DNA of 64,000 nt from Candidatus Limnocylindria bacterium. Its GTDB lineage: Bacteria > Patescibacteriota > Saccharimonadia > Saccharimonadales > JAGQNK01. A program made the position numbers and the translations under genes. Below, in pieces: positions 674 to 35,658 of this stretch. The first letter of the stretch is position 1. The number at the start of each line of letters is the position of its first letter. The stretch covers positions 1,359 to 65,358 of the forward strand of contig DATHJH010000012.1 in assembly GCA_035489815.1 (NCBI GenBank), read 5' to 3'. Under the pieces are notes generated by a model. The model worked only from the letters and a program-made list of their open reading frames with translations, had not been told where the DNA came from and did not search any database.

Positions 674-1465
674 TTACTGGATTTTCTTTTTATGCTGAGA
701 ACGAAGGGCCTTTACGGTCAATTCTGTCCTGCTCCTGGCATACGCGCAATAGTCGCACTCGCCGCCCATGGCCGCCGTGCCCACCGCCGGCATGTCGCCT
801 TCCATGCACTTTTTCATATCGTGCAGAGTTGGCTCTACCCAGTCGGCATTACCAGTGTAAGGAATAACCTTCGTCTTGAACTCTACTTTGTCATAAAACC
901 CATCCAGATCAAGCCGGCCGTTGGTATACACAAAGTACCCTGTGTCCCGCACTTCAAAGCCGTTCTGGCGCAGCAACCACTGATACACCTCCATCTGACG
1001 CTTGTAGCTGATCTGCCAGTCAGAGTCTATGCCCACTTCTCTGTCCTTGGCCGTGGCCTTGTAGTCCACCACTATCAACTGCCCGGCTTCATCCACCCAC
1101 ACATCGTCAATGGCACCAAAAACGTGCAGGTTGGTCGGTTCATGGACAGAGACCACCCCTACAAAATTTTCACGCCACTGGTCCAGGCTGTCGTGCGTAA
1201 ACGGTACGGCCTTCAGGCCAAACTCTACCATCATGGGGTGGGGTTCGCCTTTTTGGCGGTAGCCGTCAAATTCTTTTTTAAGCAATCCGTCTATTGCTTT
1301 GTTTATGTTGAAAGGCGGGCCGTTTGGGCGCCTTATCTTAAGCCGCACATCCAGCCAAAAACACCGTGGGCACTGCATATACAACTCAATCTTGCTGCGG
1401 CTCACCTTAAATGGTGCCTGTTGGCCAAGTTTATATGGCTGCGACCGTTCCCTCCAATAGTTCAT
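674..1465 (-). CDS. PD-(D/E)XK nuclease, Cas4/RecB-like, with putative Cys cluster
   Basis: 263 aa. Motifs: N-terminal QCPRCFW, IDD...VVDYKAT (D...D/ExK), QMEVYQWLL (QxxxY), and C-terminal KKC...GGECDYCAY cysteines as in Cas4/AddB-type Fe-S nucleases. Confidence 0.7.
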   Translation of the reverse strand: MNYWRERSQPYKLGQQAPFKVSRSKIELYMQCPRCFWLDVRLKIRRPNGPPFNINKAIDGLLKKEFDGYRQKGEPHPMMVEFGLKAVPFTHDSLDQWRENFVGVVSVHEPTNLHVFGAIDDVWVDEAGQLIVVDYKATAKDREVGIDSDWQISYKRQMEVYQWLLRQNGFEVRDTGYFVYTNGRLDLDGFYDKVEFKTKVIPYTGNADWVEPTLHDMKKCMEGDMPAVGTAAMGGECDYCAYARSRTELTVKALRSQHKKKIQ

Positions 1466-2475: not shown

Positions 2476-3114
2476 CTAATCCTCTCTGAATATCTGCTGT
2501 AGTTCTGCCGGCGAGTAAACCAGGTAATCGGGTTGATGTGCTTTCAGAATCTCATCACCGTTGAATCCCCAGGTAACGGCTATGGACTTCAGGCCTGCTT
2601 TTTTGGCTGCCTCTACATCCCGGATTTCATCGCCGACGTAGTAGGTGGTAGCTTTGTCCAGGCTGTGCTCTTTTGCTATCTGGCGCAGCACTTTTGCCTT
2701 TCCAAAGATGCCCACACCGCCGTAGACTGCCTTGAATGGTTCCCTCATGGCATGCAATTCCAGAAACTTTTCAACATTTGCCAGGCTGTTGGAGCTCATC
2801 ACAAACAACTGATGATCCTTGGACAGTTGTCGCACAACCTTGTCCATTCCGGCGAAAAACGGTACTTCATTAATACGCTGCGTCAGCGCCGCACGACCCT
2901 TAATCAACAACCCGGGCGCCCGCCAAAACGGGATGCCCAGCTCTTTCAGGATAGCCTGGATAGACAGGTTCTTAGCACGGTCGTAATCATCACGTGTCAG
3001 CGGCCTGTCTACAATCTTCAGTTCGTTCACCAGTTCCAGGAGAACGGGTATGCTGTCGGCCAACGTACCGTCCAGGTCAAAGATTATGTTGCTTGCTCTG
3101 TCTGGCCGGCCCAT
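2476..3114 (-). CDS. HAD-IA family hydrolase (phosphoglycolate phosphatase-like)
   Basis: 212 aa. HAD motif I IIFDLDGTLADS, motif II VMSSNS, motif IV YVGDEIRDVEAAKKAGL. Confidence 0.85.
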   Translation of the reverse strand: MGRPDRASNIIFDLDGTLADSIPVLLELVNELKIVDRPLTRDDYDRAKNLSIQAILKELGIPFWRAPGLLIKGRAALTQRINEVPFFAGMDKVVRQLSKDHQLFVMSSNSLANVEKFLELHAMREPFKAVYGGVGIFGKAKVLRQIAKEHSLDKATTYYVGDEIRDVEAAKKAGLKSIAVTWGFNGDEILKAHQPDYLVYSPAELQQIFRED

Positions 3115-3140
3115 ACAAGAATCCCTCCCGCGCGCGAAGG

Positions 3141-4088
3141 CTAGCGCGCCAAGCCGATAACAAGAATACCCGCAAAGGCAGCTTTGGTAAGCAGACTGAT
3201 AGCTATGTAGTTGCGCTCGACCACCAGAAAGTTTGCCCGACCAAACTCCATATGCTGGTTGCGGGCCTGCAGCAGGAAACCGCCAAAAACAGCCGCGTAG
3301 AGCGCGTAGACATACCAGGTCACACCGGCCGTACCATAGACAACAGTCGCTACTGCGTATGACGCGATGAGCAGCCAGGGCAATACGCCCGTAAACAGAC
3401 TTACGTAGTAGGCACTACGGACCGGCTTTGCAGCGGCATTGTTTTGTCTTTCGGCAATCAGTCCCAATAAAGCTGTAGCCGCTACCATACCACCGATGAG
3501 CTTCAGTGTTGGGAGGTCACTCACGCCGCTTACCAGTGCCACGACTTCCGTCATCAGAGCACCGGTAATAGCCAGGTCAATCCAACGCATAGACCACATG
3601 CGTGATTGCTGCAGGTATTCGGCATATTGCTTCTGAAGCCTGGTAAGGTACAAAACCGGGAAGATCATAGAAGCCAGCATGATGCCGACAACGGCCCAAC
3701 GAAGTTCTATGTCATAGACTGCTTGTACTGCCGGGGCAAATACGGTGGTCTGAGTGCTGGCCAGCTCGTCCTTTGCCAGGTAGCCAAGCGTCAGTTGATG
3801 ACTGGCGGTATTCATGAGGGCACCGGCGGCCACTGCCAGCAATAAGAAAATCCCTATAGCTGCTACGTGCAAGCTGCGAAGTTTCTGGATAGTCATGCCG
3901 GCAACTGTTGGTCCGGGCTGTGTTTTCTTAGCGGCGGCCTTTGGTATTGTTGCGGTCGCAGATGGACGTTTAGCTGCAGTCGCCCTCGTGGTTTTGACAG
4001 CAGTTTTGGCCGAAACCTTCTTAGTTGTTTTTGTCTTTGCAGTTTTTGTCTTTGCCTTGGTAGTTGATTTCTTTGTAGTTGTTGCCAT
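3141..4088 (-). CDS. heliorhodopsin-like 7TM retinal-binding protein with Lys/Thr/Ala-rich N-terminal extension
   Basis: 315 aa. Residues 65-315 form seven hydrophobic helices. Motifs parallel heliorhodopsin 48C12 as I remember it: MRWIDLAITGALM (cf FRWVEYSLSSSVM), GVLPWLLIASYAV (cf GIVPWIGLLIYVI), ERNYIAISLLTKAAFA (cf ERAYIVLSLVAKSALA, Schiff-base Lys). An internal ATG at 3896 would give a canonical 251-aa protein. Confidence 0.65.
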   Translation of the reverse strand: MATTTKKSTTKAKTKTAKTKTTKKVSAKTAVKTTRATAAKRPSATATIPKAAAKKTQPGPTVAGMTIQKLRSLHVAAIGIFLLLAVAAGALMNTASHQLTLGYLAKDELASTQTTVFAPAVQAVYDIELRWAVVGIMLASMIFPVLYLTRLQKQYAEYLQQSRMWSMRWIDLAITGALMTEVVALVSGVSDLPTLKLIGGMVAATALLGLIAERQNNAAAKPVRSAYYVSLFTGVLPWLLIASYAVATVVYGTAGVTWYVYALYAAVFGGFLLQARNQHMEFGRANFLVVERNYIAISLLTKAAFAGILVIGLAR

Positions 4089-4116
4089 AAACAGAGTATA
4101 TCAGAGACGGGAAATG

Positions 4117-4605
4117 TCACAACTCCTTGTAGGGTACGTGGCACATACCACGGCCGGTTTTTTCTGTGTATTTCTGATGAATGTCTTCTGCCTGGTAAAA
4201 TTCGGAGGCCTCAGTCACCTCAGTTACAATCGCTTTGTCCGAGCCTTTTTGTAACTCATTGCGAACATTTTCTGCCATAACGCGCTGGCTTTCGTTTAGG
4301 TAGAAAATTGCCGAGCGATACTGCTCCCCCACATCTGGTCCTTGCTGATTCATTTGTGTTGGATCATGCATGTAGAAAAATTGTCTTACGAGCGTTTCAT
4401 AACTCACGCTTCCAGGGTCAAATTCTATGAGCGTCGCCTCTGCATGGCCGGTGTCTTTATAGCAGACATCATCGTAGGTTGGGTTTTTGGTATGCCCACC
4501 CGTATAGCCCGCTGTAGTCTTGGTGACACCTGGTACTTGGTCAAAGTAGTATTGCACACCCCAAAAGCAGCCGGCGGCAAATAAAGCTTTTTCAGTTTTC
4601 ATCAA
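4117..4605 (-). CDS. msrA: peptide-methionine (S)-S-oxide reductase
   Basis: 162 aa with the GCFWGVQ active-site motif and full-length MsrA-like sequence. Confidence 0.95.
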   Translation of the reverse strand: MMKTEKALFAAGCFWGVQYYFDQVPGVTKTTAGYTGGHTKNPTYDDVCYKDTGHAEATLIEFDPGSVSYETLVRQFFYMHDPTQMNQQGPDVGEQYRSAIFYLNESQRVMAENVRNELQKGSDKAIVTEVTEASEFYQAEDIHQKYTEKTGRGMCHVPYKEL

Positions 4606-5212
4606 ACCTCCTAATCTTGAATGGTTTGGCTACAAACTTTTCGGCATCACCTCTGGTAATCAGGCGTGAACGCGTGGCGTAGCGGATAAGTGCCAGACTG
4701 GGCTGATGCTCAAAACCTATGTGTACAATTTCCTTCTTGTAGCTTTGGGCCTTTTGCATGGCCGGAATCAAATCCGTGTCTGAGGAAACTACAAAAGCAG
4801 TATCGTACTTTTTCTCAAACGCCATAGTCACAATGTCTACTGCCAGCCGGACGTCGACTCCCTTTTCAAAAAACCGATCGTCACGTTCCAGCAGGTAACC
4901 GCGGACGACCTCCACCTTTTGTTTGCTTAGCTGAGCAAAAAGCTGTTGCTGATGACGCCGCAGGGTCTGTGCTTTTTGGTTACGCTTGTGCTTGCCATCA
5001 TCCCGCACCACCCCTATATAGTAGCCGATATAACTGATGGTTTCGTCCTGGTTTAAAAACGCCTTCATCAGGTCATGGTAGCGATAACGAATCAGGTCCA
5101 TTTTGTGCGGTACCAGCGACTTCATCTTAAAGTAAAAGTTGCTGCCGTCTATAAAGACGGCTACTTGTTTCTTCTTGCCTCTCCCGCTTGCCATGAAGGT
5201 ATTGTCCCCCAT
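4592..5212 (-). CDS. NYN-domain (LabA/DUF88-like) putative RNase
   Basis: VAVFIDGSNFYF and VVSSDTDLIPAMQKAQ motifs. The start is trimmed to the ATG at 5212 (MGDNTFMASGRGKKKQ) because the longer ORF overlaps the DUF427 gene. Confidence 0.75.
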   Translation of the reverse strand: MGDNTFMASGRGKKKQVAVFIDGSNFYFKMKSLVPHKMDLIRYRYHDLMKAFLNQDETISYIGYYIGVVRDDGKHKRNQKAQTLRRHQQQLFAQLSKQKVEVVRGYLLERDDRFFEKGVDVRLAVDIVTMAFEKKYDTAFVVSSDTDLIPAMQKAQSYKKEIVHIGFEHQPSLALIRYATRSRLITRGDAEKFVAKPFKIRRFDEN

Positions 5213-5297
5213 TTTCAGGCAATAAAAAAGCCCTGGCGAGACTACGGCTGGCCAGGGCGGTTTAGCAAATATATAGTAGCAAAATCCTCCAGGGGTG

Positions 5298-5600
5298 TCA
5301 ATCCGCAACCTGGACGTCGCGCCAAAAGGCAAGGTAGTTGGAAAAGTCTTTTTTAACCCGCTTGATGGCCGTTGGCAACGGTTTTGGGTAACTCCAGGCC
5401 ATGTCCTTGCCCCAGTCATCACCCTGCCCTACATCAAAATACTGACAAACACCCTTCCACGGGCAGGTATAAGGCGTCGGACTTTCCCGCAAAAATTCCT
5501 TTTTGACCGAACTGGGCGGAAAATACCAGTTGCCTTCAATATAAATCACGTCGTCTTTATCTGCCTCGGCTATAACCTGATCTTTCCAAACTGCTTTCAT
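5298..5600 (-). CDS. DUF427-domain protein
   Basis: 100 aa. IEGNWYFP and CPWKGVCQYFDV are typical of DUF427. AAGGAG lies upstream of the ATG. Confidence 0.75.
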   Translation of the reverse strand: MKAVWKDQVIAEADKDDVIYIEGNWYFPPSSVKKEFLRESPTPYTCPWKGVCQYFDVGQGDDWGKDMAWSYPKPLPTAIKRVKKDFSNYLAFWRDVQVAD

Positions 5601-18652: not shown

Positions 18653-19420
18653 TTATAGGGCTTTGTCACCCCAGTCAGAAAACGTCAGCACAATTACCAC
18701 TATGGCCACCATCATAAGTATGAACTGTTTACGCCACATGTCAGACAGCCTGTCAGTTTGATCAAGGTAATACATAGCTGCAAGCCCATAGCCAATAACC
18801 ACAATCAACAACGTCGGCTGAGCTAATACATTGTAAAACAGGAGCCAGTGCCCCAGTATCCAAATCAGTGCAGCAGCAAAATACCCCCAGATATGTGAAA
18901 ACAGCAGCGCGTACGGCTCATCAAAGCTTGTGAAGAAATGCCGGGCACACAAATAACAAATAAACCAACTGGTCACTATGAGTCCGTACAGCGGCATATC
19001 GCCAGAAACCAAAAAGAGCGCCATAAGCGCCGCCAGCTGGGCGACCACTGCCTGCAATGAAACCTGCAGCGTACTGGAGCCTGGTTTTAGAAATACCAGC
19101 CACAGACCGTACGCTACAGCCCAGACGACCTGCCACATACCTACGCTCGTAGAGGACATAAATATGACGACTGATAGACCGACCATAATATCTACTGCAT
19201 TAGCCCGTACATTTGCCGGCCAGTAGCGGATGCGGACCGCGAACATGCGCCACTTGCTCAAGATAATGAGAGCCGCGGCCAACGGCGCAAAGTCAATCCT
19301 GACCAGTACATACAAAAGGACTGGCAGGAGAGCGTTTAAGCCAATATGGGCTACATTAGCAAAACCACTCTTGGGTCGAAGGCTTCTAGTTCGCGAGACG
19401 AGTTTGTTCATTCTGTCCAA
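18653..19420 (-). CDS. hypothetical polytopic membrane protein
   Basis: 255 aa with about 8 hydrophobic helices. No family recognised. The start overlaps the end of the LCP gene. Confidence 0.5.
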   Translation of the reverse strand: MDRMNKLVSRTRSLRPKSGFANVAHIGLNALLPVLLYVLVRIDFAPLAAALIILSKWRMFAVRIRYWPANVRANAVDIMVGLSVVIFMSSTSVGMWQVVWAVAYGLWLVFLKPGSSTLQVSLQAVVAQLAALMALFLVSGDMPLYGLIVTSWFICYLCARHFFTSFDEPYALLFSHIWGYFAAALIWILGHWLLFYNVLAQPTLLIVVIGYGLAAMYYLDQTDRLSDMWRKQFILMMVAIVVIVLTFSDWGDKAL

Positions 19421-24028: not shown

Positions 24029-24808
24029 CTACTGTCTGGAGGGATTCATCTGGTTTATGTAGAATTTCCATTCCTCGTCATCTAAGTTTTTGTTAGCCTG
24101 GATGAACACGAGCACCTCGTCTGTGGCAAAGATGGCAGTTTGTGTCTTTGCCTCTTCATCCGTTGCAATGTAGGCCATGCCTTTCTGCGTCTCAAGTGAT
24201 TTATCTGCCTGTATAGATTTGACTATGTTAGCTAACTCACCGGGGTTGGTTTTGACTTTTTCCGGGAGTGCCTGCTGGCTGATGGTCAAAACCGCGCCGT
24301 TATACTCAGAGTCGTAGCCAAGCACCTTCTTATCTTCGTCATACCGATACTTTGAATCGTCCGTCTCACCCTTAACCTGTGCAACACCCTCCAGGGGTAC
24401 TAGAGGCGTAAATGCTTCCTGGACCTTATCTACTACACTGACAGGCTTTTTCGCCTCAGTTGCCGCCTGTCGGGCCGAAATGACCTTGAACGCGCCGACA
24501 ACCAGTACCAAACAGGCAGCAGTACCAGTTGCCATGAAAATATGTTTCCGGTGGGATCGGTATAATTGCCTGGGATCGGGCAGCCTCACCTTAGGGATCG
24601 CAAGTTTGAGGTTTACGACTACCTCTTTGTCGCTGACCTCCTTGCCTGTCTGGACCCGTGGCTGCTCACGCCGATCCTTAGCCTGCGGCCTTTGCGCGGC
24701 TATTTTCTGCTTGAGCTCCTTAGAAACAGGCCGATTCTCCGCCTTGCGCCGAAGCATCTCCCACTCAGGATCATTGTCAAACCAACTGCTCGGTATCTTA
24801 TTCCCCAT
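24029..24808 (-). CDS. hypothetical single-pass membrane protein (last gene of the giant-protein locus)
   Basis: 259 aa. Basic cytoplasmic N-region, TM IFMATGTAACLVLVVGAFKVI, and an extracytoplasmic globular domain of about 150 aa. No family recognised with confidence. Confidence 0.5.
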   Translation of the reverse strand: MGNKIPSSWFDNDPEWEMLRRKAENRPVSKELKQKIAAQRPQAKDRREQPRVQTGKEVSDKEVVVNLKLAIPKVRLPDPRQLYRSHRKHIFMATGTAACLVLVVGAFKVISARQAATEAKKPVSVVDKVQEAFTPLVPLEGVAQVKGETDDSKYRYDEDKKVLGYDSEYNGAVLTISQQALPEKVKTNPGELANIVKSIQADKSLETQKGMAYIATDEEAKTQTAIFATDEVLVFIQANKNLDDEEWKFYINQMNPSRQ

Positions 24809-24870: not shown

Positions 24871-27800
24871 TTAGAATGGAGTGTCGAGGGGTTGGAGGAG
24901 GCCGTCGGTGAAGGTTTTGCCGTGACGGAGACGTTTGCCCGGATCGCTGGTGAAAAACAGAGATAAATCCTCTATGGTTGGACCGCGTGAAACGTCTTCA
25001 GGGAATCCCCAGGCGTTCTGGCTATCTATAGTTAGGTTCAGGAAATAGTAACGGGCGCAGAGCGTATCCGTCCCTGAGCCATCTTTTGGTATGTAGGCAC
25101 CCGGGCTGGTGAGCGTAATAGCACCAAAGTTCGTATTTTGGCCCCAAGTGGTCATATCAGATGAACCGCAGTCTGTAGCTATCCCGTCAGTATCGTTCAT
25201 GGAGCGATAATTCAAGAGCCACCGCGCTCCATCGGCGTTATCCAGTCCATTAGCCAAGAATTTAGTGGGGAATACGTCGGTATCAGTGTCTATGGCAATC
25301 GAATAATTGGCGATCTGTGGCTGGAATTGTAAAGTTGTATGCACGACACGATCAGTGGTAGTAAATGCGGCTCCTGCACAGTTATAGCCACCTAAGACAT
25401 AAGCCCTGCCCCCTGAGTAAGAAATCGACGCCCCATAGCGAACAATGTTAAAACGAACGTTAGTCTGAGACCAGTACCCCAAAGAACCGTTAGCATTAAT
25501 GGGTATGACATAGGTGTTATTGGTACAAACTGCGGCGGCAGACCTGCCCCCAAACAGATACAAAAAGCCATTACTTGCAAAGCCATCTGCTTGCCGTACG
25601 GGCTGTGGCAACTTTTCGGTCTGTGTCCAGCTACCGACCTCTCCGCTGCTGTTGATAGGCGCATATTGGGCATCCAGCAAATAGTTCGTACCGTCAAATC
25701 CGCCAAGAATATAGAGAAAACTTCCATAGGCTATAGCCACATGGCCGCTACGAACAGTAGTAAAGACGGTCATGTTGGTAGTGGTCCAAGGTAAGCCTAT
25801 ATCACCCCCGCTAGCCAATGATGGGCTCGCGTATATAACATTCGATGCAGCACTAGAACCATCATTACCACCTGTCACGTAAATCCGATTATTCCAAACG
25901 GTTGAGCTATGCATGGTTCTACCTGCTGGCAAATCGTTCGACGTATTTACTGTATTCCAGGCTGTAACCTGCCCGCTGGCATCGGGCGTACCGTAATAGA
26001 TATCTACAGTACCTGCTGTTGAGCCTGATGCCTGGCCACCTATAAAATAGAGTGTGCCTCCCACAACCTCCATCTGGCCGTGAGCCTTTGCAAGTGGCAA
26101 TGTATCATCTGTAGTATTAGCCCAAGTACCTACGGTTCCGTCAGCGTTTAATGGAGCAACCTGGACATTATTCGTGGCAGTCGTACAGTCTGTGGCTGTC
26201 GTACAACCGCCAGCCACATACATGTAGCCGTTGTAGATTGTCGAAGCTGCTGCATACCGATCAGTAACAAACAGGCCATCGCCAACAGAAGTATAAGATG
26301 CCGGCGAGGCGCTATAGTTGTTGTACACCTGCACTTTTTCATTCACACCGCTTTGGGCGCTACAGCTTCCAGGAGGCGCACCGTTGGTGCAGCCTCCCAC
26401 TACATAAACATAGCCGTTGGCTGCAGCGGCACCTTCGTTCCATCTCGGTGTGATGGCCGTGGTCGAAGTGGTCCAAGCACCAAGATCTCCGGTGGTCTGG
26501 TCTATCTTGGCGTATTGTATGTCATCCAGCGTAGCAGGCGTGCCGCTTCCATCATGCCCTCCTATGACATAAATGTAGCCGTTAACCCCTACCGCTACCC
26601 CGCGCCGCCGGGGCCGACCACTGAGGGCAGTGGTCGTATCCCAGGCAGCGGTTGCTGCCCCATCGGCTCGTACGATATTGCCACTAGAGTTTATGGTAGC
26701 AAAGTAGACCGTGCTGGACTGACCTCCCGCGCTGGTACCACCACCTGCCAGGTAAATATAGTTTGCGTAGTATATGCCGGCCATCAAGCCGACAGCCGTG
26801 CCTAGTTGTAGCTGATTCGTTTCTGCGCATGTACCTACCGCTCCCGTGGAGTTTGTAATGGGGCATTTAAAAACATCTGTGACGTATCCCGAACCGGCAG
26901 TACAACCGATTCCGGCAGCACCGCCGCAACCCCCAATCGAGTAAATACTACCCGCCGTGGCCGTATCGGCTCTCGTTACTACGAAGGAGTGGCCATACGC
27001 CGTAGCTAATCTGTTAGTAGCAGTAGCGTCCCAAGCACCTATACTTCCATCCGCAGCAAACTGAGCATGGAAGATCGTTCTTACGTAAGCCGCCCCATTT
27101 GACCCGCCTACCACATACACTCGATTGTTATATACCGCTACGCCAAACCCACCAACACCTGTCGTGCCATTAAGTCCGCTGTTATCGACAAGCCAAGTAC
27201 CGATTGACCCATCGGCATTTATGGGTGCATAGCCAGTATTATCGCTCATAGTGTCACAGTCATTAACGGAGCAACCACCGATGTTGTATATATATCCATT
27301 ATTGATAACTACCCCCATGCCAGTGCGCCCAACCTGACCATCTGCATTACCCATCGTCGGTTGGGCATTTTCGTTTTCTATGGGCCCGAGGTTTCCGTCC
27401 CCGTTAATGACACCGTACGCATTTGCGGTTTGCGGGCCACTGGTGCCACTACAATTGCTGCTGGCTGTCGGCTGAATGCACCCACCAATAGAGTAAAGTG
27501 TGTTGCGCCAAGCCACGAACCCTTGGCCGAATTGCCGGCCCCTCGTCCCTGTTACCGCATACGTTGTCCAGTCCGTAACCGACCCGTCGGCGTTGATACT
27601 TGCCATTTGCACCGATAACCGATTCAGGTCTATGGAGTAACCTTGGCTCGACACGGTTTGGCTCACGTCAACCGTCAGGCTAGTGTTATTGGTGACATTT
27701 GTAATTGTTGCTGTAGTGCCGTTGGCAAATGTAATCGACATGCCCGCTGTTACCCCAGAGCTTAACCAAGTTGTCCCAGAGCCAGTCACGGTTGTTGTGC

Positions 27801-29733
27801 TCTGACTGGCGGTATTAGTGTTGTAGAATGAGCTACAATCCGTTGCCGTGACGGTGCTACAGCCGCCGTTTATATACATATACCCGCCCGAAATCGTAGC
27901 CATAGACCCCCCAAAGGTAGCCCGAGCCGTTGGCAAGGCTGTTGTGGTCACCCAGCTACTCCCCAAAGTGCCGTCAGGTAGTACCTTGATGTATTGGACT
28001 GTGGTTTGTGTTGTTGTACCATTTACACCACCGACAACATATAGGTAGCCATTATACTGCAGCGCAGCATGTGCCCAACGGCCGGAAGTAAGCGCTGTAA
28101 TTCCGGCTGCTACCCAAGTACCCAAAGATCCGTTGGGGTTAATATTTGCTACCTCTACGGTAGCCACCCCTCCCGTGGATCCATTTGTTTGCCCGCCCAA
28201 GAGATACATCTTGTTGTTGTATGGTATGGCAGAGGCAAAGCTTCTCTCCGTGCTCAGTGCCGTAGTAGTACTCCAAGGTAGCGGCTCACCATTAGCACCA
28301 ATTTTCGCGTAATAGGTTGTCGTGCTACGAGTGCCGCCCGAATCTTTTCCACCCATGAGATAAAGATAGCCGTTGTAGGTCGATACACTCATGGAATCGC
28401 GAACAGCGCCGGCAGGTAGATCATAAGCGTTATTAGTACACCAATTGGTACAGGCACCTGCTCCCGGGTTAGGGGCAACGAGGGTGTTGTTGGAAGTATC
28501 CAACTTTGCCCAGTAGACATTACCGACACGAGTTGAGCCGCTATTGCCACCGATAACATACACATAGCCCCCCGCCACTACCGTGCCGTGATTCCAGCGG
28601 GCCGCCGGCAGCGACATAGTGCCGGTATAGCTAGGAAGCCGGGCGCCAGTGAGTACGCCCTTTTGGATCAATTCATTGGAAACATCAAAGTCAACATTAC
28701 TCTCGTTGTTGCCGCGCATAAATTCAGCGGCTGTTTCAACATAAATGCTTGGGTCAATACTTAGTGGATAATTGGCTTGCTTGAGGCCTTCGGCTTTTAC
28801 AAGTAACTTATTCCCTTCCAGCAGGTAGGAAACCTTCACATCTGATTTGGTTTTGTCCTTTTCTAGCACGGTCGGTGCTGGAATGCTAAACAGTAGCTTA
28901 TTCTTAGGGGCATTGCCACGAACTTTTTCAAGCAGCTCTGCATCGGCGTCACTACCCGTAGCTACCTGGCCGTTGATTGGAAGTTCGCTGCCGTAGACGC
29001 CAATAGACCCGTTCTTTTCAAGTCTGGCTTCCAAGCCGTTTTCCAGCCCAAGTTCGTATTCATACTCCAATGTATCCTTTGTGTATCTGTCCAGCACTAT
29101 ATCTTCTTTCACGCCAGCCGCCTGCGCAGTATAAACAAGGTAGCCAGGTTGGCCCGCGAGCCGATACAGCACTTGGTTCTTGTCTTGTTTGCCTTCCAGC
29201 AAACGGAATTTTGGCTTGAGCGTAAACTCAGTTTGACTAAGCGGATCAGTGACTGACATGCCTTTTGCGGGATCCGCAGCGAATGAGGCATTTATACGCG
29301 GATTTCCCGTATTGCTCATTGTGCTCTCTGGATTCGTTACGCCAGTATAGCCAGCGTTATATTCAAAACTTTCCTGTTTGGCGTCAAACTTGAGCACGTC
29401 GGCAAATTTCTGACTCTGTTTTGGAAGCAACGCCCGGGCGGCTTTGCTCAAATGATACGGCTTGGCATCCAAAAACGGCTGAATAGTTGCTACGCCGATA
29501 GAAAGTATCAACAATACTATAGAGGCGAAAGCATAGGCCCGTAGATAGATTGGAGTTTTGGTCTTATGCTTTTTGGTTGCTAGTTTACCAAGCGCAAAGA
29601 TCATTTTGTGAGCCCGGGTAGGCATGCAAGCAGGCGCTTTTAAACGATGATCCCTGGTTGCCAATGCAGCAACGCGACGTCCAGGTAACGCTGTCTGTAC
29701 TTTCCTAGTATCCCTCATCCGAATATCGTTCAT
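24871..29733 (-). CDS. giant membrane-anchored Kelch-repeat protein (18 blades, about three beta-propellers)
   Basis: 1620 aa. N-terminal TM (AFASIVLLILSIGVATI). 18 occurrences of the Kelch signature hydrophobic-x-Y-hydrophobic-x-GG (YVYVIGG, YLYLMGG, KMYLLGG ... RAYVLGG) between aa 380 and 1470 (nt 25324-28596). N-terminal module ending in YPLSIDPSIY. Distinct 150-aa C-terminal domain. Confidence 0.85.
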   Translation of the reverse strand: MNDIRMRDTRKVQTALPGRRVAALATRDHRLKAPACMPTRAHKMIFALGKLATKKHKTKTPIYLRAYAFASIVLLILSIGVATIQPFLDAKPYHLSKAARALLPKQSQKFADVLKFDAKQESFEYNAGYTGVTNPESTMSNTGNPRINASFAADPAKGMSVTDPLSQTEFTLKPKFRLLEGKQDKNQVLYRLAGQPGYLVYTAQAAGVKEDIVLDRYTKDTLEYEYELGLENGLEARLEKNGSIGVYGSELPINGQVATGSDADAELLEKVRGNAPKNKLLFSIPAPTVLEKDKTKSDVKVSYLLEGNKLLVKAEGLKQANYPLSIDPSIYVETAAEFMRGNNESNVDFDVSNELIQKGVLTGARLPSYTGTMSLPAARWNHGTVVAGGYVYVIGGNSGSTRVGNVYWAKLDTSNNTLVAPNPGAGACTNWCTNNAYDLPAGAVRDSMSVSTYNGYLYLMGGKDSGGTRSTTTYYAKIGANGEPLPWSTTTALSTERSFASAIPYNNKMYLLGGQTNGSTGGVATVEVANINPNGSLGTWVAAGITALTSGRWAHAALQYNGYLYVVGGVNGTTTQTTVQYIKVLPDGTLGSSWVTTTALPTARATFGGSMATISGGYMYINGGCSTVTATDCSSFYNTNTASQSTTTVTGSGTTWLSSGVTAGMSITFANGTTATITNVTNNTSLTVDVSQTVSSQGYSIDLNRLSVQMASINADGSVTDWTTYAVTGTRGRQFGQGFVAWRNTLYSIGGCIQPTASSNCSGTSGPQTANAYGVINGDGNLGPIENENAQPTMGNADGQVGRTGMGVVINNGYIYNIGGCSVNDCDTMSDNTGYAPINADGSIGTWLVDNSGLNGTTGVGGFGVAVYNNRVYVVGGSNGAAYVRTIFHAQFAADGSIGAWDATATNRLATAYGHSFVVTRADTATAGSIYSIGGCGGAAGIGCTAGSGYVTDVFKCPITNSTGAVGTCAETNQLQLGTAVGLMAGIYYANYIYLAGGGTSAGGQSSTVYFATINSSGNIVRADGAATAAWDTTTALSGRPRRRGVAVGVNGYIYVIGGHDGSGTPATLDDIQYAKIDQTTGDLGAWTTSTTAITPRWNEGAAAANGYVYVVGGCTNGAPPGSCSAQSGVNEKVQVYNNYSASPASYTSVGDGLFVTDRYAAASTIYNGYMYVAGGCTTATDCTTATNNVQVAPLNADGTVGTWANTTDDTLPLAKAHGQMEVVGGTLYFIGGQASGSTAGTVDIYYGTPDASGQVTAWNTVNTSNDLPAGRTMHSSTVWNNRIYVTGGNDGSSAASNVIYASPSLASGGDIGLPWTTTNMTVFTTVRSGHVAIAYGSFLYILGGFDGTNYLLDAQYAPINSSGEVGSWTQTEKLPQPVRQADGFASNGFLYLFGGRSAAAVCTNNTYVIPINANGSLGYWSQTNVRFNIVRYGASISYSGGRAYVLGGYNCAGAAFTTTDRVVHTTLQFQPQIANYSIAIDTDTDVFPTKFLANGLDNADGARWLLNYRSMNDTDGIATDCGSSDMTTWGQNTNFGAITLTSPGAYIPKDGSGTDTLCARYYFLNLTIDSQNAWGFPEDVSRGPTIEDLSLFFTSDPGKRLRHGKTFTDGLLQPLDTPF

Positions 29734-29826: not shown

Positions 29827-32800
29827 CTACTGGTTGGTGTAAGTGAAGTCGAGGTTCTCGACATACACATTGGCTTCGTTCATTGCTTTGACATTTATCT
29901 TGAAGATTATGTAGTCCCCTGGGGCAAAGCCACAGGCCGTTTCATTCCCGTTGAACAGAGTAGTATTCCATGCATTAGCAGTCGGAGTAGTAACCGTTGA
30001 TTCTGTTACACCGTCACAAGAAGTAACTCCTCCGGAACTTGCTTTTCTGTAGACTTGATACGTCACTTTGCCGTTGGTTCCGCTTGCGGCATCAGTAAGC
30101 CACGTTAGCTTGATAGTGTTAGCGTCAATAAAGCCCTCAAAGGTAGTCGGTAACTTGTAGTTCACATAAATACTATAGGTTTGCATCGTTGGTTGCGGAG
30201 AGGTCCATTTATAGAAGTTGCGAACTTCACCAGAAGCACACAGGCTGCCGACACTTAAAGCCGCGTCATTTGAACAGAAGTCAGAGGTCAGCGTACCCAC
30301 GCCTGGGAAACCGCCACCGTTTAGAACAGCACCAGCATATTCTGGAGTAAGTGTAATTATATTGTCTGGTGCGGCTCCACATGCCCCCCAAGCCGTACCG
30401 TCGTAACACTGGATCTTTCCTGATGTAGTGTCGTAGTACATAGAGCCTGCAAGTGAGGCGTTGGCTCCAGTGAACGGTGTGCCCGCGTAAGTATCAAGGG
30501 TGAGTAGTGTCAGACCCTGGCTAGTCGTGCCACCAATCCTTAGGACGCCAGTGTTTTGGGTACCTGAGGAGTTCCGTGAAACGATGCTTAGGTTATCGAC
30601 GTACATATTTCGTGTCGTGCCATCACTCTGGTAGATAGCCAGATACGCTGATGAATTGGTTGCAGTACTATTGGTTGTCATGGCGCAAGTAAACTTCGTA
30701 AAGCTTGACGTACTCAGGGTGGGATTGGTGCCGGCCACACAAGTAGAGTTGTTGCTTGCTGTGCCCGTCGGGCTTAACACAACAACTAGGTTGCTATTTG
30801 CCAACGCAACACTTGTGCGTACTGAGAAGCTGATGTTGTACGTGGTGCTTGCCGACATTGCAGTACCAACATTATTACGAAGCCCTTGCGCCGCCCCAGT
30901 CGTTGCAGCCCTAGCACTGTAGGTTCCACTAGCAACTATTGATGACTCGCAGCTTAATGTGCTACTGTGCGCAGCCCAACTGGTAGGAGAGGTCGGACAG
31001 CCCGACTCAGCTCCTGAGTTAAGGGCAACATTAAGGCCGCTACCTGTATTTGTAGAATCCAAGCTGAATAACGTTGCTCCGACCGAGTTCTGAAGCTGAA
31101 ATACATTGGCAGCATCTGTTGTAGTTCTTGCGACAACCGTACCGAGAAGTGATATACCGCCGGTACCGGACTGAATGGTAGTTGCACCTGTGCTGGCGGT
31201 AGAACCCAGCGTTACCGTCTTGGCGCCGGTGCCACCAGTACCAAGGTTGATGGCTTGGGCGCCGGTGCCTACTCCCAGGTTAATAGTACCTGTCTGGAGC
31301 CCGGTACCACCGATGCTGATTGTGCCGCCGGTCATAGCAGTACCAAGAGAAATCGAGCCGGCGGTTTGCCCGGTACCGATTGAAATAACATTAGCTGCGG
31401 TGCCCGTACCAAGGTTTACCGTCTTCACGCCGGTATTGCCAGTACCAAGGTTAACAATTTGGGCGCCGGTACCACCACCGAACGTAATAGTACCTGTCTG
31501 GAGGCCAGTGCCGCCAATACTGATGGTGCCAGTGGTCATAGCAGCACCAATTGCTACGGAGCCAGCCGTCTGGGTGTTTCCCATACCTATGGCATTTGCC
31601 CCGGTGCCACCGATATTTATGGTGTTTGCAACTGCACCTGTACCAATACTAATTATTTTGGCGTTTGCGCCAGTACCTACATTAACCGTCCCCGTAGTCC
31701 CGGAGTCCAGTGTCACAGTACTTGTGGTTGCCGAAGAGACTGTAAGTGCTCCCGTGCCCAGTATGCTGGTTGCATTTGTAGATAAAACGTTCGCAGCGCT
31801 GCGGTACAGAGAAGTATCATTTCCAAACAATATCCCGGAAGCCGACGTACCGCCCGTCCCGGTAAGCGACAAAGCTACCGCTCCCGTACCCGATGGTTCA
31901 GCGATCCGTACGCCTATGTTAGAGGTCGTACCGGTAGACAGTGTTGACACGTCCAACCCGATGTTGTTGACAACCGTACCGCCGCCGCTAGCTTCCGGGT
32001 TCCTGGCCCAGAAAGAACGGGCAGTCGTCAAGGTATACCCGGCCTGAACATGATCATCGAACAGCCGCGGCAACCAAGTCATATACCCGGCGTAATCTGT
32101 TACGGTGTGGGTGCCTGTGCCGCCGGCCCGGCCAAAGAACGGATTGTCATAGTAGCCGGTCATGACGGCCGTCGTTCCGGCAGCGCCGGAGTGGTTCAGA
32201 CGGTGGCTCACGCTTGCCGCGTAACCGGATATAGTGAAGAGAGCAGCGTCATTGATACCGCCGACAGTCGGTTGGAACGTCGGCGATGCAGAGAAGGCCG
32301 GCGCGCTCCCGAAGCTAAAGGAAGTGTCTTGCTGGAATGTCGGGGCATAATCATAACCCAACAGCGCCCAGACCGATGCACCGGCAACACTCACAGTATC
32401 GTTGAACGATATAAGTGCCGGGAAGGTGCCGTTAGCCACCGAAGTCTGGCCATTGAACGTCAGACGGGAGTTGAGGACTTCTACTTCGTTTGGCGTCGTG
32501 CTACTCCAGGCCTGATTACTACCCCTTAGGGTCAGTACATCACCTTGGGTCGTGCCGCCAATCACATCACCAGACAAGGTTAGGCTTCCAGTCAGGTTGG
32601 CATTGCCGCTGGTGTCTATTGTCAGTCGGGTTACCCCGGCTGTTTCAAGGGCCAAGCTATGACTACTGTTTGTGCCAAGTACTGCCGTACTACTGACCGT
32701 GTTGCCGTCCAGCAAAAAGGCATTGGCGGTTGTGGCAAATGTCGAGCTACAGTTGGATAGATGATTCGAGGCATTGCGGCATACTACCGTGTCCGTATTA

Positions 32801-35658
32801 GCAGTTCCCGGCGCATTGACAATCACGTTGCCCGAGCTATTCACACCAAAGAGCTCGCCATTGCCGACTGTCAAAAGATGAGTAGGTGTGGCGTCTCCTA
32901 TACCCAGGTTACCACTGGCATTCATGTTCAATAGTGCACCACCCACACTCGTAGTAACCTGCAGTATGTCAGCAGACTGTGAAGCGGCCGCTCTCAAGCG
33001 ATAACCTACATAGCTGGCACCGGGAATGGTTTGCCGGACATGAATAGTAGCATCTGAATCAGCGGGAGTCTCATTAAAACCAATTGCCAGTGCCTGGTTA
33101 CGCGTGACAATAGTCCCGCCACCTATATTTACACCTCTGGAGCCTCCGGTCCCGGGGTTAACCTGAAACAAAGTATTACCGGCCCCGGCGATAAACGCAC
33201 TACCCCCACCAGCATACCCGAACGCGACAGTTGCGGCGCCCGGGGCAAGCGAAGTCCATGTTGTAGGGTCAACGCCATTACCACCGCCTACCCAGGCAAA
33301 GTTAAAGTTAAGGCCAAACGCAGCCTGACCGTCCGCCCGGTCTACATACAGCAAATTTGTCCTCTCGCCGTCTGGATTGCCGGGCTGGGTAAATGTGGCT
33401 ATTGGTTGACGATAGGTAAAGCTGGCAGCGCTTAAATTAGGGGAAAAGTTATTATCGACCGTCAAGGAGGTATTGCTGGCAATAGCAATAACGGTGCGGC
33501 TTTGACCGCTTGCCGTAATGACCGTACCGACAGAGACTTCCCTGGTGAATAGCGTATTAGTGCCCGTAACCGTACCGCCCGAGCTACTCACCGTACCCGT
33601 ACCACTTGTACTATCACGCCCAGTTACCGATAGACGAGCTGCTGAAGCTACAGAGTTGATAGCGACATTACCATCAAATCGTGCATTACCATCATCTACC
33701 CACAGCGCATAAGCGTTGGTGATTGTGTGATTAGTCCCGGCTGCCGGTGCATTCTGTACGTACACCGTAGCCGCATTGGTGGAAGTTACTGCGTTGGTGG
33801 AAGCTATAGTAGACTGGCCAAAAGAGTTTATAACAGTATTGGTTCGTGTCCCGGCAGAACCAGTGTCCGTATAAGTAGCACCCGAAGCCTGGAACTGAAT
33901 GCCGTTCAGACCCCAGGCAGCCTGGCTCAGGTTGCCGGTTACTTCCAACCGCGCATCAGGAGAAGCCTGGCCGACGCCCACCCTGTTATTAACTGCATCC
34001 ACAAAGAGAGTATTTGTATTAAATGCCACATCGCCGTCAGCCTGGACCGTCAGTCGTGTAAGGTTATTTGTAATGATATCCAATGCATTGTTCGAAGTCA
34101 TACCCAGCTCGCCAGTTGTAGAGGCTCCAAAGTTATTGCCCCCCTGCACAAAGGCCGCTCCATCGCCTGTCGTATTACAAGCCGCCAGTTGCTCGTCGGT
34201 GTTATAACAGAGGTAACTTGCACTGTCCGTATTGCCCAAAGTCCGTACCTCCAGCGTTCCGTCAAGGCGGGTTGCACCGGCGTCCACGAACAGGGCATAT
34301 GTATCCGCTCCTTCCACATAGATGCCATAGTCAGTTACGCCTGCACCCTGATGCTGGACATACAGGCCCGTATTCTGCGTAATGGTAGCCGTGCCTTCTT
34401 CGGGATCACGGATAGCTACCCCTACGGCTAACGGCAGCGTAAAGGTGCCGCTGGTCGAGACACTGGCCACCAAACCTGCTACGCCGCCGCTGGTCACCCC
34501 GCTGGCAGTCGGGATAAAGCTTGCAGCGTAACAATTAAGCCCACAACTATCACTACCGGTGTATATTTCGTTAACTACTAGTGCTGCCGGGACTCCGCCG
34601 GGAGAAGCATTATCACCAACAAAAAGGTTTCCGGCAATATCAACCGTCCCCGCAAAATCACTTGTACCCGCAGCCTGAACGGTCAGGGTTCCAGTAGCTG
34701 TTATATTACCTCCATTTGCCACCGTAAAGACCGGGCTGCCGTTGTCCTGGAGCACCAGGATTGCACCCGTACTGGTAGAATTGTTGACGGTAAGAGCAAC
34801 AGGGTTACCGCTCGTCCCGCCGGTAATGGTCGTGGCCCCTGTGCTGCTGATAGCTAGACGTGTACTGCCGTTGGTTATGAGGTTAAGAGCATCTGCATCG
34901 GTGGTGCCCAGCACTGCCGTGGCGTTAAAATCATTACCACCCTGGATAAACGCACTGCCAGAACCAGCAATAAAGCCGCATGAACTTGAGTTCTGGAGAC
35001 AAACCGTGCCATCCTCGTCAGGCAGCTCGATGTCTGGATTATTGGCAACCGTGTCAAATGCAAGTACACCCCTGTTAGCTCCACTCGTTTTTACCAACTG
35101 GCCAGCCTGGAAGGCATAAGGCACCGCAGTCAGCTTGATACGGGGGCTCATTTCCCCATCCCAAGAAGGCGATCCGCCCGAACCGCCAATGTTCATAGTC
35201 AGCCAGTGTTCTTCGTTCCAGTTAATGGTACCAGAAAACGAATTTACGGACCCCAGGTACACGCTGAGGTACCCGTTCTTGACCGTGACCAAATTACCCG
35301 TAGTCCTGGTTTCTGTCCACTCACAGTTTGAATCTGGCGTACCGCCGCTATAGGTACAAGCACCCTGATCTTTTGGCGTATTGCCGTCGGTGGCCACGTT
35401 ATAAAGCTTGAACTCAACATGATAATTGCCATCAGGGACAAGAGCGCCAGAACCACTCAAAATCCTGGCCTGAAAATTCAAAGTCGTCGACGGCGCACCC
35501 TGAACCTGCCCACGATTGCTCATGAGTATGAATCCAAAGAGTACGCCTATCGACGCAAACTTGATGGTTTGGAGAAGCTTTTGTTTTAGACTTCTCAGTC
35601 CATATGTGTTTGATGGTTTGAACATGTCTGTTTTTGGTTTTTGGAGTTTTGTCTGCAC
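29827..35658 (-). CDS. giant secreted fibre/adhesin-like protein with Gly/Thr solenoid repeats and a CBM-like jelly-roll domain
   Basis: 1943 aa. GTG start. Signal-like N-terminus (FASIGVLFGFILMS...VQG/AP). Gly/Thr/Ser/Ala/Asn-rich. xxIxIGTGxxA repeats at aa 1318-1500. Aa 1540-1694 (nt 30577-31041) resembles CBM_4_9 (ASGTYSARA...TTYNISFSVRT...AYLAIYQSDGTTRNMYVDNLSIV). Confidence 0.8.
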   Translation of the reverse strand: MQTKLQKPKTDMFKPSNTYGLRSLKQKLLQTIKFASIGVLFGFILMSNRGQVQGAPSTTLNFQARILSGSGALVPDGNYHVEFKLYNVATDGNTPKDQGACTYSGGTPDSNCEWTETRTTGNLVTVKNGYLSVYLGSVNSFSGTINWNEEHWLTMNIGGSGGSPSWDGEMSPRIKLTAVPYAFQAGQLVKTSGANRGVLAFDTVANNPDIELPDEDGTVCLQNSSSCGFIAGSGSAFIQGGNDFNATAVLGTTDADALNLITNGSTRLAISSTGATTITGGTSGNPVALTVNNSTSTGAILVLQDNGSPVFTVANGGNITATGTLTVQAAGTSDFAGTVDIAGNLFVGDNASPGGVPAALVVNEIYTGSDSCGLNCYAASFIPTASGVTSGGVAGLVASVSTSGTFTLPLAVGVAIRDPEEGTATITQNTGLYVQHQGAGVTDYGIYVEGADTYALFVDAGATRLDGTLEVRTLGNTDSASYLCYNTDEQLAACNTTGDGAAFVQGGNNFGASTTGELGMTSNNALDIITNNLTRLTVQADGDVAFNTNTLFVDAVNNRVGVGQASPDARLEVTGNLSQAAWGLNGIQFQASGATYTDTGSAGTRTNTVINSFGQSTIASTNAVTSTNAATVYVQNAPAAGTNHTITNAYALWVDDGNARFDGNVAINSVASAARLSVTGRDSTSGTGTVSSSGGTVTGTNTLFTREVSVGTVITASGQSRTVIAIASNTSLTVDNNFSPNLSAASFTYRQPIATFTQPGNPDGERTNLLYVDRADGQAAFGLNFNFAWVGGGNGVDPTTWTSLAPGAATVAFGYAGGGSAFIAGAGNTLFQVNPGTGGSRGVNIGGGTIVTRNQALAIGFNETPADSDATIHVRQTIPGASYVGYRLRAAASQSADILQVTTSVGGALLNMNASGNLGIGDATPTHLLTVGNGELFGVNSSGNVIVNAPGTANTDTVVCRNASNHLSNCSSTFATTANAFLLDGNTVSSTAVLGTNSSHSLALETAGVTRLTIDTSGNANLTGSLTLSGDVIGGTTQGDVLTLRGSNQAWSSTTPNEVEVLNSRLTFNGQTSVANGTFPALISFNDTVSVAGASVWALLGYDYAPTFQQDTSFSFGSAPAFSASPTFQPTVGGINDAALFTISGYAASVSHRLNHSGAAGTTAVMTGYYDNPFFGRAGGTGTHTVTDYAGYMTWLPRLFDDHVQAGYTLTTARSFWARNPEASGGGTVVNNIGLDVSTLSTGTTSNIGVRIAEPSGTGAVALSLTGTGGTSASGILFGNDTSLYRSAANVLSTNATSILGTGALTVSSATTSTVTLDSGTTGTVNVGTGANAKIISIGTGAVANTINIGGTGANAIGMGNTQTAGSVAIGAAMTTGTISIGGTGLQTGTITFGGGTGAQIVNLGTGNTGVKTVNLGTGTAANVISIGTGQTAGSISLGTAMTGGTISIGGTGLQTGTINLGVGTGAQAINLGTGGTGAKTVTLGSTASTGATTIQSGTGGISLLGTVVARTTTDAANVFQLQNSVGATLFSLDSTNTGSGLNVALNSGAESGCPTSPTSWAAHSSTLSCESSIVASGTYSARAATTGAAQGLRNNVGTAMSASTTYNISFSVRTSVALANSNLVVVLSPTGTASNNSTCVAGTNPTLSTSSFTKFTCAMTTNSTATNSSAYLAIYQSDGTTRNMYVDNLSIVSRNSSGTQNTGVLRIGGTTSQGLTLLTLDTYAGTPFTGANASLAGSMYYDTTSGKIQCYDGTAWGACGAAPDNIITLTPEYAGAVLNGGGFPGVGTLTSDFCSNDAALSVGSLCASGEVRNFYKWTSPQPTMQTYSIYVNYKLPTTFEGFIDANTIKLTWLTDAASGTNGKVTYQVYRKASSGGVTSCDGVTESTVTTPTANAWNTTLFNGNETACGFAPGDYIIFKINVKAMNEANVYVENLDFTYTNQ
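31159..31707 (-). repeat. in-frame coding tandem repeats (Gly-Thr-Gly solenoid-like), including a 204-bp (68-aa) duplication
   Basis: The protein repeats GTISIGGTGLQTGTI(T/N)(F/L)G.GTGAQ.(V/I)NLGTG twice, 68 aa apart (about nt 31174-31581). Shorter IGTG/LGTG units flank these. Confidence 0.8.

Follow-up and report, generated by a model that had tools for sequence, protein, structure and literature searches.

What is the protein encoded at positions 3141 to 4088 (minus strand) of a 64,000-nucleotide stretch of contig DATHJH010000012.1 (assembly GCA_035489815.1), and what might it do for the cell that carries it? The whole of this stretch is referred to here as the window, and all of the codons and motifs discussed for this gene lie on its minus strand. 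A first-pass annotation had read the gene as a heliorhodopsin (HeR)-like photoreceptor with an aspartate counterion, adjacent to a methionine sulfoxide reductase gene. Our analysis shows that it is a real but divergent heliorhodopsin and a member of a large branch of the family in the Saccharimonadia (candidate phyla radiation [CPR]/Patescibacteria).

Family membership, fold, and true start

The open reading frame (ORF), which runs from the ATG at 4088 to the TAG at 3141 to 3143 and encodes 315 amino acids, is the sole match to the HeR hidden Markov model (HMM) within the window. Pfam PF18761 (Heliorhodopsin) aligns with residues 77 to 311 over profile positions 8 to 239 of 242 (E = 9.1e-26; 91.1 bits against a cutoff of 26.7). 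A search of the PDB with the protein sequence recovers all solved heliorhodopsins, including TaHeR (6is6; 5e-14) and 48C12 (6su3; 2e-12), and a clade profile built from 111 homologs lifts these matches to 6e-32 and 4e-28, respectively, over essentially the whole chains. An AlphaFold2 (AF2) model built from the homolog alignment has a mean predicted local distance difference test (pLDDT) score of 88, with values above 94 in the membrane domain, and places seven helices at residues 67 to 91, 129 to 148, 166 to 186, 192 to 218, 225 to 251, 258 to 282, and 287 to 314. This seven-helix domain occupies residues 65 to 315 (3144 to 3896). The long beta-hairpin loop that had been noted after the first transmembrane helix (TM1) is borne out by the model, in which extracellular loop 1 (ECL1) forms strands 96 to 106 and 117 to 128.

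In Foldseek comparisons the model superimposes on TaHeR 6is6 with a TM-score of 0.89 (root mean square deviation [rmsd], 1.6 Å; E = 2e-12) and on 48C12 with a TM-score of 0.83. For type-1 rhodopsins the best match has a TM-score of just 0.53 (E = 3.6e-3), so that the HeRs are the closer relatives. Lysine and arginine total 23 in the tail and the three cytoplasmic loops, whereas the three extracellular loops and the C-terminal residue together have 2; by the positive-inside rule, these counts fit a predicted inverted (N-in) topology, as defines heliorhodopsins. The resemblance should not be overdrawn: the statement that the protein lines up nearly residue for residue with 48C12 was too strong, since identity to canonical HeRs is approximately 23% and several residues of the Schiff base cavity are replaced (see below).

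The start of the gene also requires revision. The first-pass annotation had counted a 251-amino-acid protein from an internal methionine (Met65, at 3896), and the resulting span of 3141 to 3896 leaves out 64 codons. We reject this start because methionine occupies the position in only 1 of 120 homologs, homologs preserve the tail upstream of it, and ATG 4088 is preceded by a conserved -10 box. Codons 1 to 64 (3897 to 4088) encode a Lys/Thr/Ala-rich tail (18 Thr, 15 Lys, and 14 Ala) with a net charge of +17 and no Asp or Glu; it is modeled as disordered (pLDDT 50 to 59, no secondary structure), and the Pfam scan gave no match for it. It would be cytoplasmic, because the charge distribution puts the N terminus inside. 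Its opening motif, MAT(T)TKKSxKAKTKT, is kept in about 100 of 110 full-length homologs, T4, K13, K15, and T16 each being present in at least 90% of homologs, and is followed by 40 to 90 Lys/Thr/Ala-rich residues. No other ORF in the window has such a segment, and 19 of the 20 ORFs that have one in 96 loci are HeRs.

Cytoplasmic N-terminal additions have precedents in MORN-HeR and Znf-HeR, whose add-ons are read as partner-recruiting modules in Bulzu et al. 2021 (PMC8612252); the same source counts at least 10 kinds of HeR N-terminal extension, catalogued there without interpretation. The MORN and Znf additions described there are folded (MORN repeats and a zinc ribbon), whereas the tail found here is disordered and polycationic, of low complexity, and matches no Pfam family.

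A promoter-like site found by consensus scan lies directly ahead of the revised start (4095 to 4122, minus strand). It comprises a -35 element, TTGTGA (4122 to 4117), a 16-nucleotide spacer, and an extended -10 element, TG-A-TATACT, which ends at 4095, 6 nucleotides ahead of the ATG; there is no Shine-Dalgarno (SD) sequence upstream of ATG 4088. This geometry puts the predicted transcription start at or beside the A of the ATG, which would make the mRNA leaderless. In 22 of 23 orthologous loci, a TAnnnT hexamer, in most cases preceded by TG, stands 5 to 9 nucleotides (mostly 6 to 7) ahead of the ATG, and this conserved -10 box holds regardless of which gene sits upstream. The HeR gene thus appears to be transcribed from a predicted extended -10 promoter of its own, and its conservation speaks for a start at ATG 4088 and argues that transcription of the gene does not depend on the msrA gene upstream. 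SD-like sequences precede most of the other window genes. Two genes elsewhere in the window, priA (start at 55140, plus strand) and def (start at 57103, plus strand), have a -10-like hexamer approximately 6 to 7 nucleotides ahead of the ATG and lack an SD-like sequence, and their mRNAs may be leaderless too.

The Schiff base region and its variation in the branch

Alignments with 48C12 and TaHeR, together with a check of the codons, confirm the two residues on which the photoreceptor assignment had been based. Asp171 (GAC, 3576 to 3578; Asp107 if counted from Met65) falls at the counterion position, Glu107 in 48C12 and Glu108 in TaHeR, because RWID aligns with RWFE/RWVE. Lys302 (AAA, 3183 to 3185; Lys238 from Met65) falls at the Schiff base position because SLLTK (S298 to K302) aligns with the SLVAK of TaHeR and 48C12. 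The single glutamate counterion in TM3, which has been described as highly conserved throughout the HeRs (PMC7049168), is therefore replaced by Asp171, a conservative change that keeps the negative charge. One helical turn past Asp171 lies Thr175 (ACC, 3564 to 3566), at the position of Ser111/Ser112.

Many other residues are retained. With 48C12 numbering in parentheses, these are Ser140 (Ser76), Tyr155 (Tyr92), Arg168 (Arg104), Trp169 (Trp105), Met179 (Met115), Gly209 (Gly145), Glu213 (Glu149), Pro237/Trp238 (Pro172/Trp173, in the GVLPW motif already pointed out by the first-pass annotation), Phe271 (Phe206), Gln278 (Gln213), Glu291 (Glu230), Ser298 (Ser237), and Lys302 (Lys241). The main residues of the retinal pocket (W169, M179, G209, P237/W238, F271, and Q278) are thus all present. 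Three of the retained residues, Arg168 (3585 to 3587), Glu213 (3450 to 3452), and Glu291 (3216 to 3218), make up a cytoplasmic charged cluster; these and Trp169 vary little or not at all in the clade.

The cavity around the Schiff base is another matter. A 2020 analysis of 479 sequences found high conservation throughout the HeRs for Glu107, Ser111, Ser76, His23, His80, Asn101, Tyr108, Asn16, Glu230, Arg104, Tyr92, Glu149, and Trp105; His23, His80, Asn101, Tyr108, and Asn16 line a polar Schiff base cavity (PMC7049168), the presumed acceptor of the proton in canonical HeRs. In a reference-anchored alignment on 48C12, His23 becomes Phe81 (3846 to 3848), His80 becomes Pro144 (3657 to 3659), Asn101 becomes Trp165 (3594 to 3596), and Tyr108 becomes Leu172 (3573 to 3575). 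Further changes are Asn16 to His74, Ser111 to Thr175, Pro40 to Gln, and Gln26/Ser242/Trp246 to Leu/Ala/Gly. Judged from these substitutions, the cavity that is polar and water-filled in canonical HeRs is hydrophobic in the window protein. The consensus of the clade at the same four positions is F/Y, P/S, L/V/S, and L/M/I, and sequences with canonical signatures (N-H-S-H-N-R-W-E-Y-S...K) are confined to the lowest ranks of the best 150 representatives. Because residues listed as conserved in all HeRs are replaced in it, the branch stands outside the published picture of the family. In sum, the window protein resembles 48C12 (6SU3) and TaHeR (6IS6) in its fold (TM-score 0.83 to 0.89; rmsd 1.6 to 3.5 Å), long ECL1 hairpin, N-in topology, SxxxK lysine, and single acidic TM3 counterion after an invariant Arg-Trp, and it differs from them in the extra 64-residue polycationic tail, the loss of the polar cavity, and the Asp/Thr pair in place of Glu107/Ser111.

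The Glu-to-Asp change had been expected to shift the spectrum. Published mutants speak against this expectation: the absorption spectra of 48C12 E107D and TaHeR E108D (PDB 7CLJ) are identical to the wild-type spectra, and in 7CLJ a new hydrogen bond from Ser112 to Asp108 compensates for the change (bioRxiv 10.1101/2020.06.24.168591). These mutants, which still function as pigments and of which TaHeR E108D is also the top PDB sequence match of the window protein, share with it an Asp counterion and a hydroxyl one turn on that is able to hydrogen-bond the Asp. By analogy, Asp171 and Thr175 would stand in for Glu and Ser111 with little effect on color. The mutants differ, however, in being point mutants in a canonical background, whereas the Asp of the window protein is natural, its partner is Thr rather than Ser, and its cavity is remade; given that cavity, the unchanged color of the mutants may not be fully transferable.

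The aspartate is not peculiar to this gene. An exhaustive phmmer search over 1.84 billion cluster representatives returned 602 proteins at E ≤ 1e-3, 93 of them at E ≤ 1e-30, and we counted residues in the best 150 of the 602 representatives (50%-identity clusters), 145 of which could be aligned at the counterion and lysine sites. The counterion column holds Asp in 69, Glu in 29, and a non-acidic residue in 47 (32%). Among the 120 best homologs the corresponding numbers are 86 Asp, 25 Glu, and 9 others. On these alignments, Asp is the commonest state of the large Saccharimonadia branch and is normal there rather than private to the window gene; the first-pass annotation was right to place Asp where Glu is conserved, but this does not set the gene apart from its relatives. 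We do not favor a single origin of the Asp state, as a rough neighbor-joining tree requires at least 27 changes of counterion state and its largest clade with at least 90% Asp has 12 leaves.

The lysine itself varies as well. It is present in 110 of the 145 representatives and replaced by R, Q, T, L, A, V, I, Y, or N in 35 (24%), with at least 21 changes between K and non-K on the same tree. Both the counterion and the lysine sites are evolutionarily labile in the branch. Lysine-less homologs (with R, Q, V, I, A, or L), often without an acidic counterion, include our entries P0052 to P0119 and many of P0121 to P0260. The subclade around the window protein is different, for among its 51 closest homologs Asp171 is found in 50, Lys302 in 51, and Thr or Ser at 175 in 49, a uniformity that argues for purifying selection on the triad of Schiff base lysine, counterion, and hydroxyl. 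The three sites also tend to be kept or lost together. In 146 representatives, with no correction for phylogeny, a hydroxyl at 175 accompanies the lysine in 82% of cases versus 37% where the lysine is missing (P = 2e-6), and an acidic residue at 171 does so in 73% versus 51% (P = 0.02). Such a pattern would be expected if, in all proteins that keep the lysine, Lys, Asp/Glu, and Thr/Ser worked together as a unit, and it lends indirect support to retinal binding by the window protein. Asp171 itself goes with a hydroxyl at 175 slightly more often than Glu does (78% versus 59%; P = 0.08, uncorrected), a weak trend from which we claim nothing. The Arg168/Glu213/Glu291 cluster behaves otherwise, being retained at 89 to 100% in K and non-K members alike, and the frequency of the tail is independent of the lysine (69% with K versus 72% without in the branch) and shows no link to Asp.

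The msrA neighbor and the conserved slot

The upstream neighbor is indeed, as first annotated, a peptide methionine-S-sulfoxide reductase gene (msrA, 4117 to 4605, minus strand; PF01625, E = 1e-60; TIGR00401, 189.8 bits). Its start is probably the ATG at 4602, which has AGGAGG upstream, rather than the TTG at 4605, and it ends 28 nucleotides ahead of the HeR start on the same strand. Downstream, 26 nucleotides past the HeR stop, is a HAD-family hydrolase gene (2476 to 3114, minus strand; Pfam HAD_2, E = 2e-29) with a GGGAGGG SD sequence. A terminator-like hairpin between the two (3124 to 3140) is weak and overlaps the SD sequence of the HAD gene, and we do not take it as real.

These genes belong to a conserved arrangement. 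The order common to related loci is ProRS-GreA-LysRS-(DUF427)-(MsrA)-HeR-(HAD)-RsmE-PD-(D/E)XK, a co-directional housekeeping block around HeR. A species-level genome collection contains 16 related loci, all from metagenome-assembled genomes (MAGs) of Saccharimonadales, Saccharibacteria, or Patescibacteria, with flanking proteins 40 to 84% identical to those of the window. Because all 16 syntenic loci have this affiliation, the source of the window is almost certainly a member of the Saccharimonadia (CPR), and the NCBI label of its MAG, Candidatus Limnocylindria (Chloroflexota), is probably a binning error.

Among these 16 HeR-anchored loci, msrA adjoins HeR in 12, and another (L012) has a truncated msrA copy approximately 1.9 kb away; the two loci closest to that of the window (L001 and L002) have no msrA. 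Two MsrA lineages, with a mutual identity of 35 to 45%, occupy the same slot and divide the loci into two sets, the window with L004, L006, L007, L009, and L013, and L003, L005, L008, L011, L014, and L016. One lineage is a GCFWG type, co-directional with HeR, and the other a GGGC(F/Y)WC type, mostly on the opposite strand. Functional coupling looked promising from these loci, and we dropped it after examining a control set of 80 metagenome loci, which were chosen by their conserved downstream PD-(D/E)XK gene without regard to HeR and were HMM-searched for HeR and MsrA. In the 35 control loci with at least 3 kb of upstream sequence, to which the 2-by-2 table was restricted, 9 have both genes, 8 HeR only, 11 msrA only, and 7 neither (odds ratio, 0.72; P = 0.74). 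Where HeR is absent, msrA can directly abut the HAD gene (L023, L033, and L058), and where msrA is absent, LysRS can directly abut HeR (L057, L074, and L077). The HAD gene, too, is found in the same place with or without HeR. The adjacency, which the first-pass annotation had taken as a hint of function, is thus best explained as conserved gene order, in which one slot can be filled by msrA, by HeR, by both, or by neither, and with no functional link; HeR moreover has its own conserved promoter. The tempting link to msrA is, in other words, an artifact of synteny.

The same slot also holds other kinds of HeR. Lysine-less copies occur there in five loci (L026:3939-4829, L027:7180-8040, L031:8418-9362, L034:9172-9999, and L074:3111-3914); they keep the Arg/Glu/Glu cluster and often a Lys-rich tail. 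Canonical HeRs occupy it in other Saccharimonadales (L047, L067, L071, L075, and L085).

Besides housekeeping genes, Pfam scans of the approximately 44 window ORFs brought up nothing but three giant surface-type proteins. These three are encoded consecutively on the minus strand, at 24871 to 29733 (1,620 amino acids, Kelch repeats), 29827 to 35658 (1,943 amino acids, no Pfam match), and 36657 to 44339 (2,560 amino acids, with a NosD/right-handed beta-helix region), and are probably cell-surface proteins of an episymbiont. The PD-(D/E)XK/Cas4-like nuclease gene (674 to 1465, minus strand) is extremely conserved across the Saccharimonadales, its product having a mean column identity of 72% in 14 sequences, four invariant Cys residues, and more than 592 metagenome matches. 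An NYN-domain ORF (4592 to 5422, minus strand, GTG at 5422) overlaps the DUF427 gene (5298 to 5600, minus strand); because its Pfam match begins only at residue 87, the actual NYN start probably lies at an internal Met close to 5200. A DUF5663 protein gene (58607 to 59242, minus strand) adjoins an ORF for 492 amino acids (59303 to 60781, minus strand) with no Pfam match, and further ORFs without a family match lie at 18653 to 19420, 24029 to 24808, and 44528 to 45355. The 64-kb window has no tRNA gene and no Rfam match at the gathering threshold.

Possible functions of the branch

We consider it rather probable, with due reservations, that the window HeR is a photosensor that runs on scavenged retinal, carries a cytoplasmic polycationic tail, and acts on a partner. 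As the first-pass annotation had stated, no retinal biosynthesis genes are found in the window: the Pfam scan of its ORFs detected no phytoene synthase, phytoene desaturase, lycopene cyclase, Blh/BCD, or RPE65. The blh gene is missing from Saccharibacteria, whose rhodopsins acquire retinal from outside (PMC9296517); photoactivity would depend on cofactor from the host because the episymbiotic cells in which the branch occurs cannot make retinal. All-trans-retinal would accordingly be drawn from the host or surroundings, as proposed for the type-1 rhodopsins of Saccharibacteria, and the protein would serve as a slow, non-pumping photosensor or regulator rather than as an energy transducer. With His23, His80, Asn101, and Tyr108 lost to a hydrophobic cavity, the proton-transfer steps of its photocycle are probably unlike those of 48C12, and this change would affect proton transfer more than the Glu-to-Asp change affects color. 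Output might pass through the Arg168/Glu213/Glu291 face, the polycationic tail, or both, the tail most plausibly holding a polyanionic partner such as a nucleic acid, an anionic lipid, or an acidic protein. The working model here is that of AbHeR, which regulates glutamine synthetase (PMC9529153), and OcHeR, which regulates the ABC transporter OmrDE (PMC11109279), in which a non-transporting HeR acts on a partner through its cytoplasmic face. The difference is that no neighbor covaries with the window HeR, MsrA and HAD being found in the slot with or without it.

Several points weigh against this photosensor reading. The polar Schiff base cavity that characterizes the family is missing from the window protein, and the four replaced residues are ones needed for normal HeR proton transfer. 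The NCBIfam equivalog model NF038020 (heliorhodopsin HeR) gives 93.6 bits, below its cutoff of 100, although two relatives of the protein score 100.5 and 101.9; it is because of this score that the identical protein present in NCBI, JGI, and ENA bears the NCBI name hypothetical protein. Several related contigs carry soil or rhizosphere MAG labels in their record names, which, as labels only, suggest a light-limited setting. Retinal binding and photoactivity are inferred for every member of the branch, and in the branch the lysine is lost in 24% and the acidic counterion in 32%. Finally, since the Arg/Glu/Glu cluster and the tail persist without the lysine, the conserved core function may need no light.

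This last point leads to the most serious rival, a light-independent membrane protein in which the HeR scaffold is reused through the cluster and the tail, and in which retinal is dispensable or an optional modulator even where the lysine remains. The 35 representatives without lysine and 47 without an acidic counterion, the repeated K/non-K changes, the indifference of the cluster and tail to the lysine, the degenerate copies in the same slot, and the absence of the retinal pathway from the scanned ORFs and of blh from Saccharibacteria (PMC9296517) would all fit such a protein. What keeps us from preferring it for the window gene is the near-uniform D/K/T triad of the window subclade, the decay of the counterion and the 175 hydroxyl along with the lysine, as expected of a functional triad, and the complete set of retinal-pocket residues; we regard it as possible but doubtful. 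An HeR-MsrA module for light or oxidative stress, in which HeR senses light and regulates or recruits MsrA much as AbHeR does glutamine synthetase, has in its favor the close, same-strand msrA of the window, the adjacency in 12 of 16 loci, which involves two MsrA lineages and either orientation, the oxidative-stress role proposed for HeRs in PMC8612252 and PMC9166423, and the precedents of HeRs that regulate the product of a neighboring gene (PMC9529153 and PMC11109279). It is nonetheless disfavored, and we think it unlikely to be correct, given the independence of the two genes in the control loci, the direct msrA-HAD and LysRS-HeR junctions, the lack of msrA in the closest relatives, the predicted leaderless-type promoter of HeR's own, and the co-directional housekeeping character of the whole region. 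Nor is MsrA among the ten published HeR neighbor groups (PMC11109279), and the literature that we searched, with incomplete coverage, yielded no paper linking the two. Least likely of all, and in our view very improbable, is a light-gated proton or ion transporter like the viral V2HeR3, or a pump feeding a metabolically poor CPR cell. One viral HeR does transport protons (PMC9448325), the altered cavity could in principle open a different ion path, and CPR cells have few means of building a proton gradient (PMC9296517). Canonical HeRs, on the other hand, show no transport (PMC7049168; bioRxiv 10.1101/2020.06.24.168591), the cavity substitutions are more hydrophobic rather than more polar, frequent loss of lysine and counterion in close relatives ill befits an energy-supplying pump, and light-harvesting Saccharibacteria use type-1 DTS pumps (PMC9296517).

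How much of this is new? Chiriac et al. 2022 (PMC9166423) recorded 80 HeRs in Saccharimonadia, described CPR HeRs as new clades, and proposed a link to oxidative stress; the window gene almost certainly belongs to this population. The existence of HeRs in Saccharimonadia that form new clades has therefore been reported already, and it is the picture at the level of the branch that merits follow-up. That survey kept only sequences with SxxxK, the commonest motifs being SLVAK, SLIAK, and SFVAK, and its available part makes no mention of an Asp counterion, a loss of His23 and His80, relatives without the lysine, a polycationic tail, or a conserved genomic slot. In the literature searched, which was incomplete and did not cover the N-terminal variant table of Bulzu et al., we likewise found no description of a natural Asp-counterion majority in a large branch, a cavity with His23/His80/Asn101/Tyr108 replaced, the polycationic tail, a leaderless-type HeR promoter, or lysine-less relatives in one slot.

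The rules that relate the structure of HeRs to function rest on two proteins, 48C12 and TaHeR. The branch described here breaks rules stated for all HeRs (Glu107, His23, His80, Asn101, and Tyr108), and curated models under-call it, be it through the NCBIfam cutoff or SxxxK filters. In the window subclade, the lysine, acidic counterion, and retinal pocket are still under apparent selection. The lysine-less relatives form a natural series able to separate light-dependent from light-independent functions. As a tentative extension, the branch, which makes up roughly 140 of the approximately 600 50%-identity clusters detected with the window query, may be a distinct functional class of HeR, marked by an Asp or variable counterion, a hydrophobic cavity, a polycationic tail, leaderless expression, and repeated lysine loss. 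In such a class the cluster and tail would do a conserved job, for instance by tethering nucleic acid, ribosomes, or an acidic partner to the membrane, and retinal would be an optional switch responding to light or host contact. If this were true, the branch would constitute a natural series leading from photoreceptor to light-blind scaffold.

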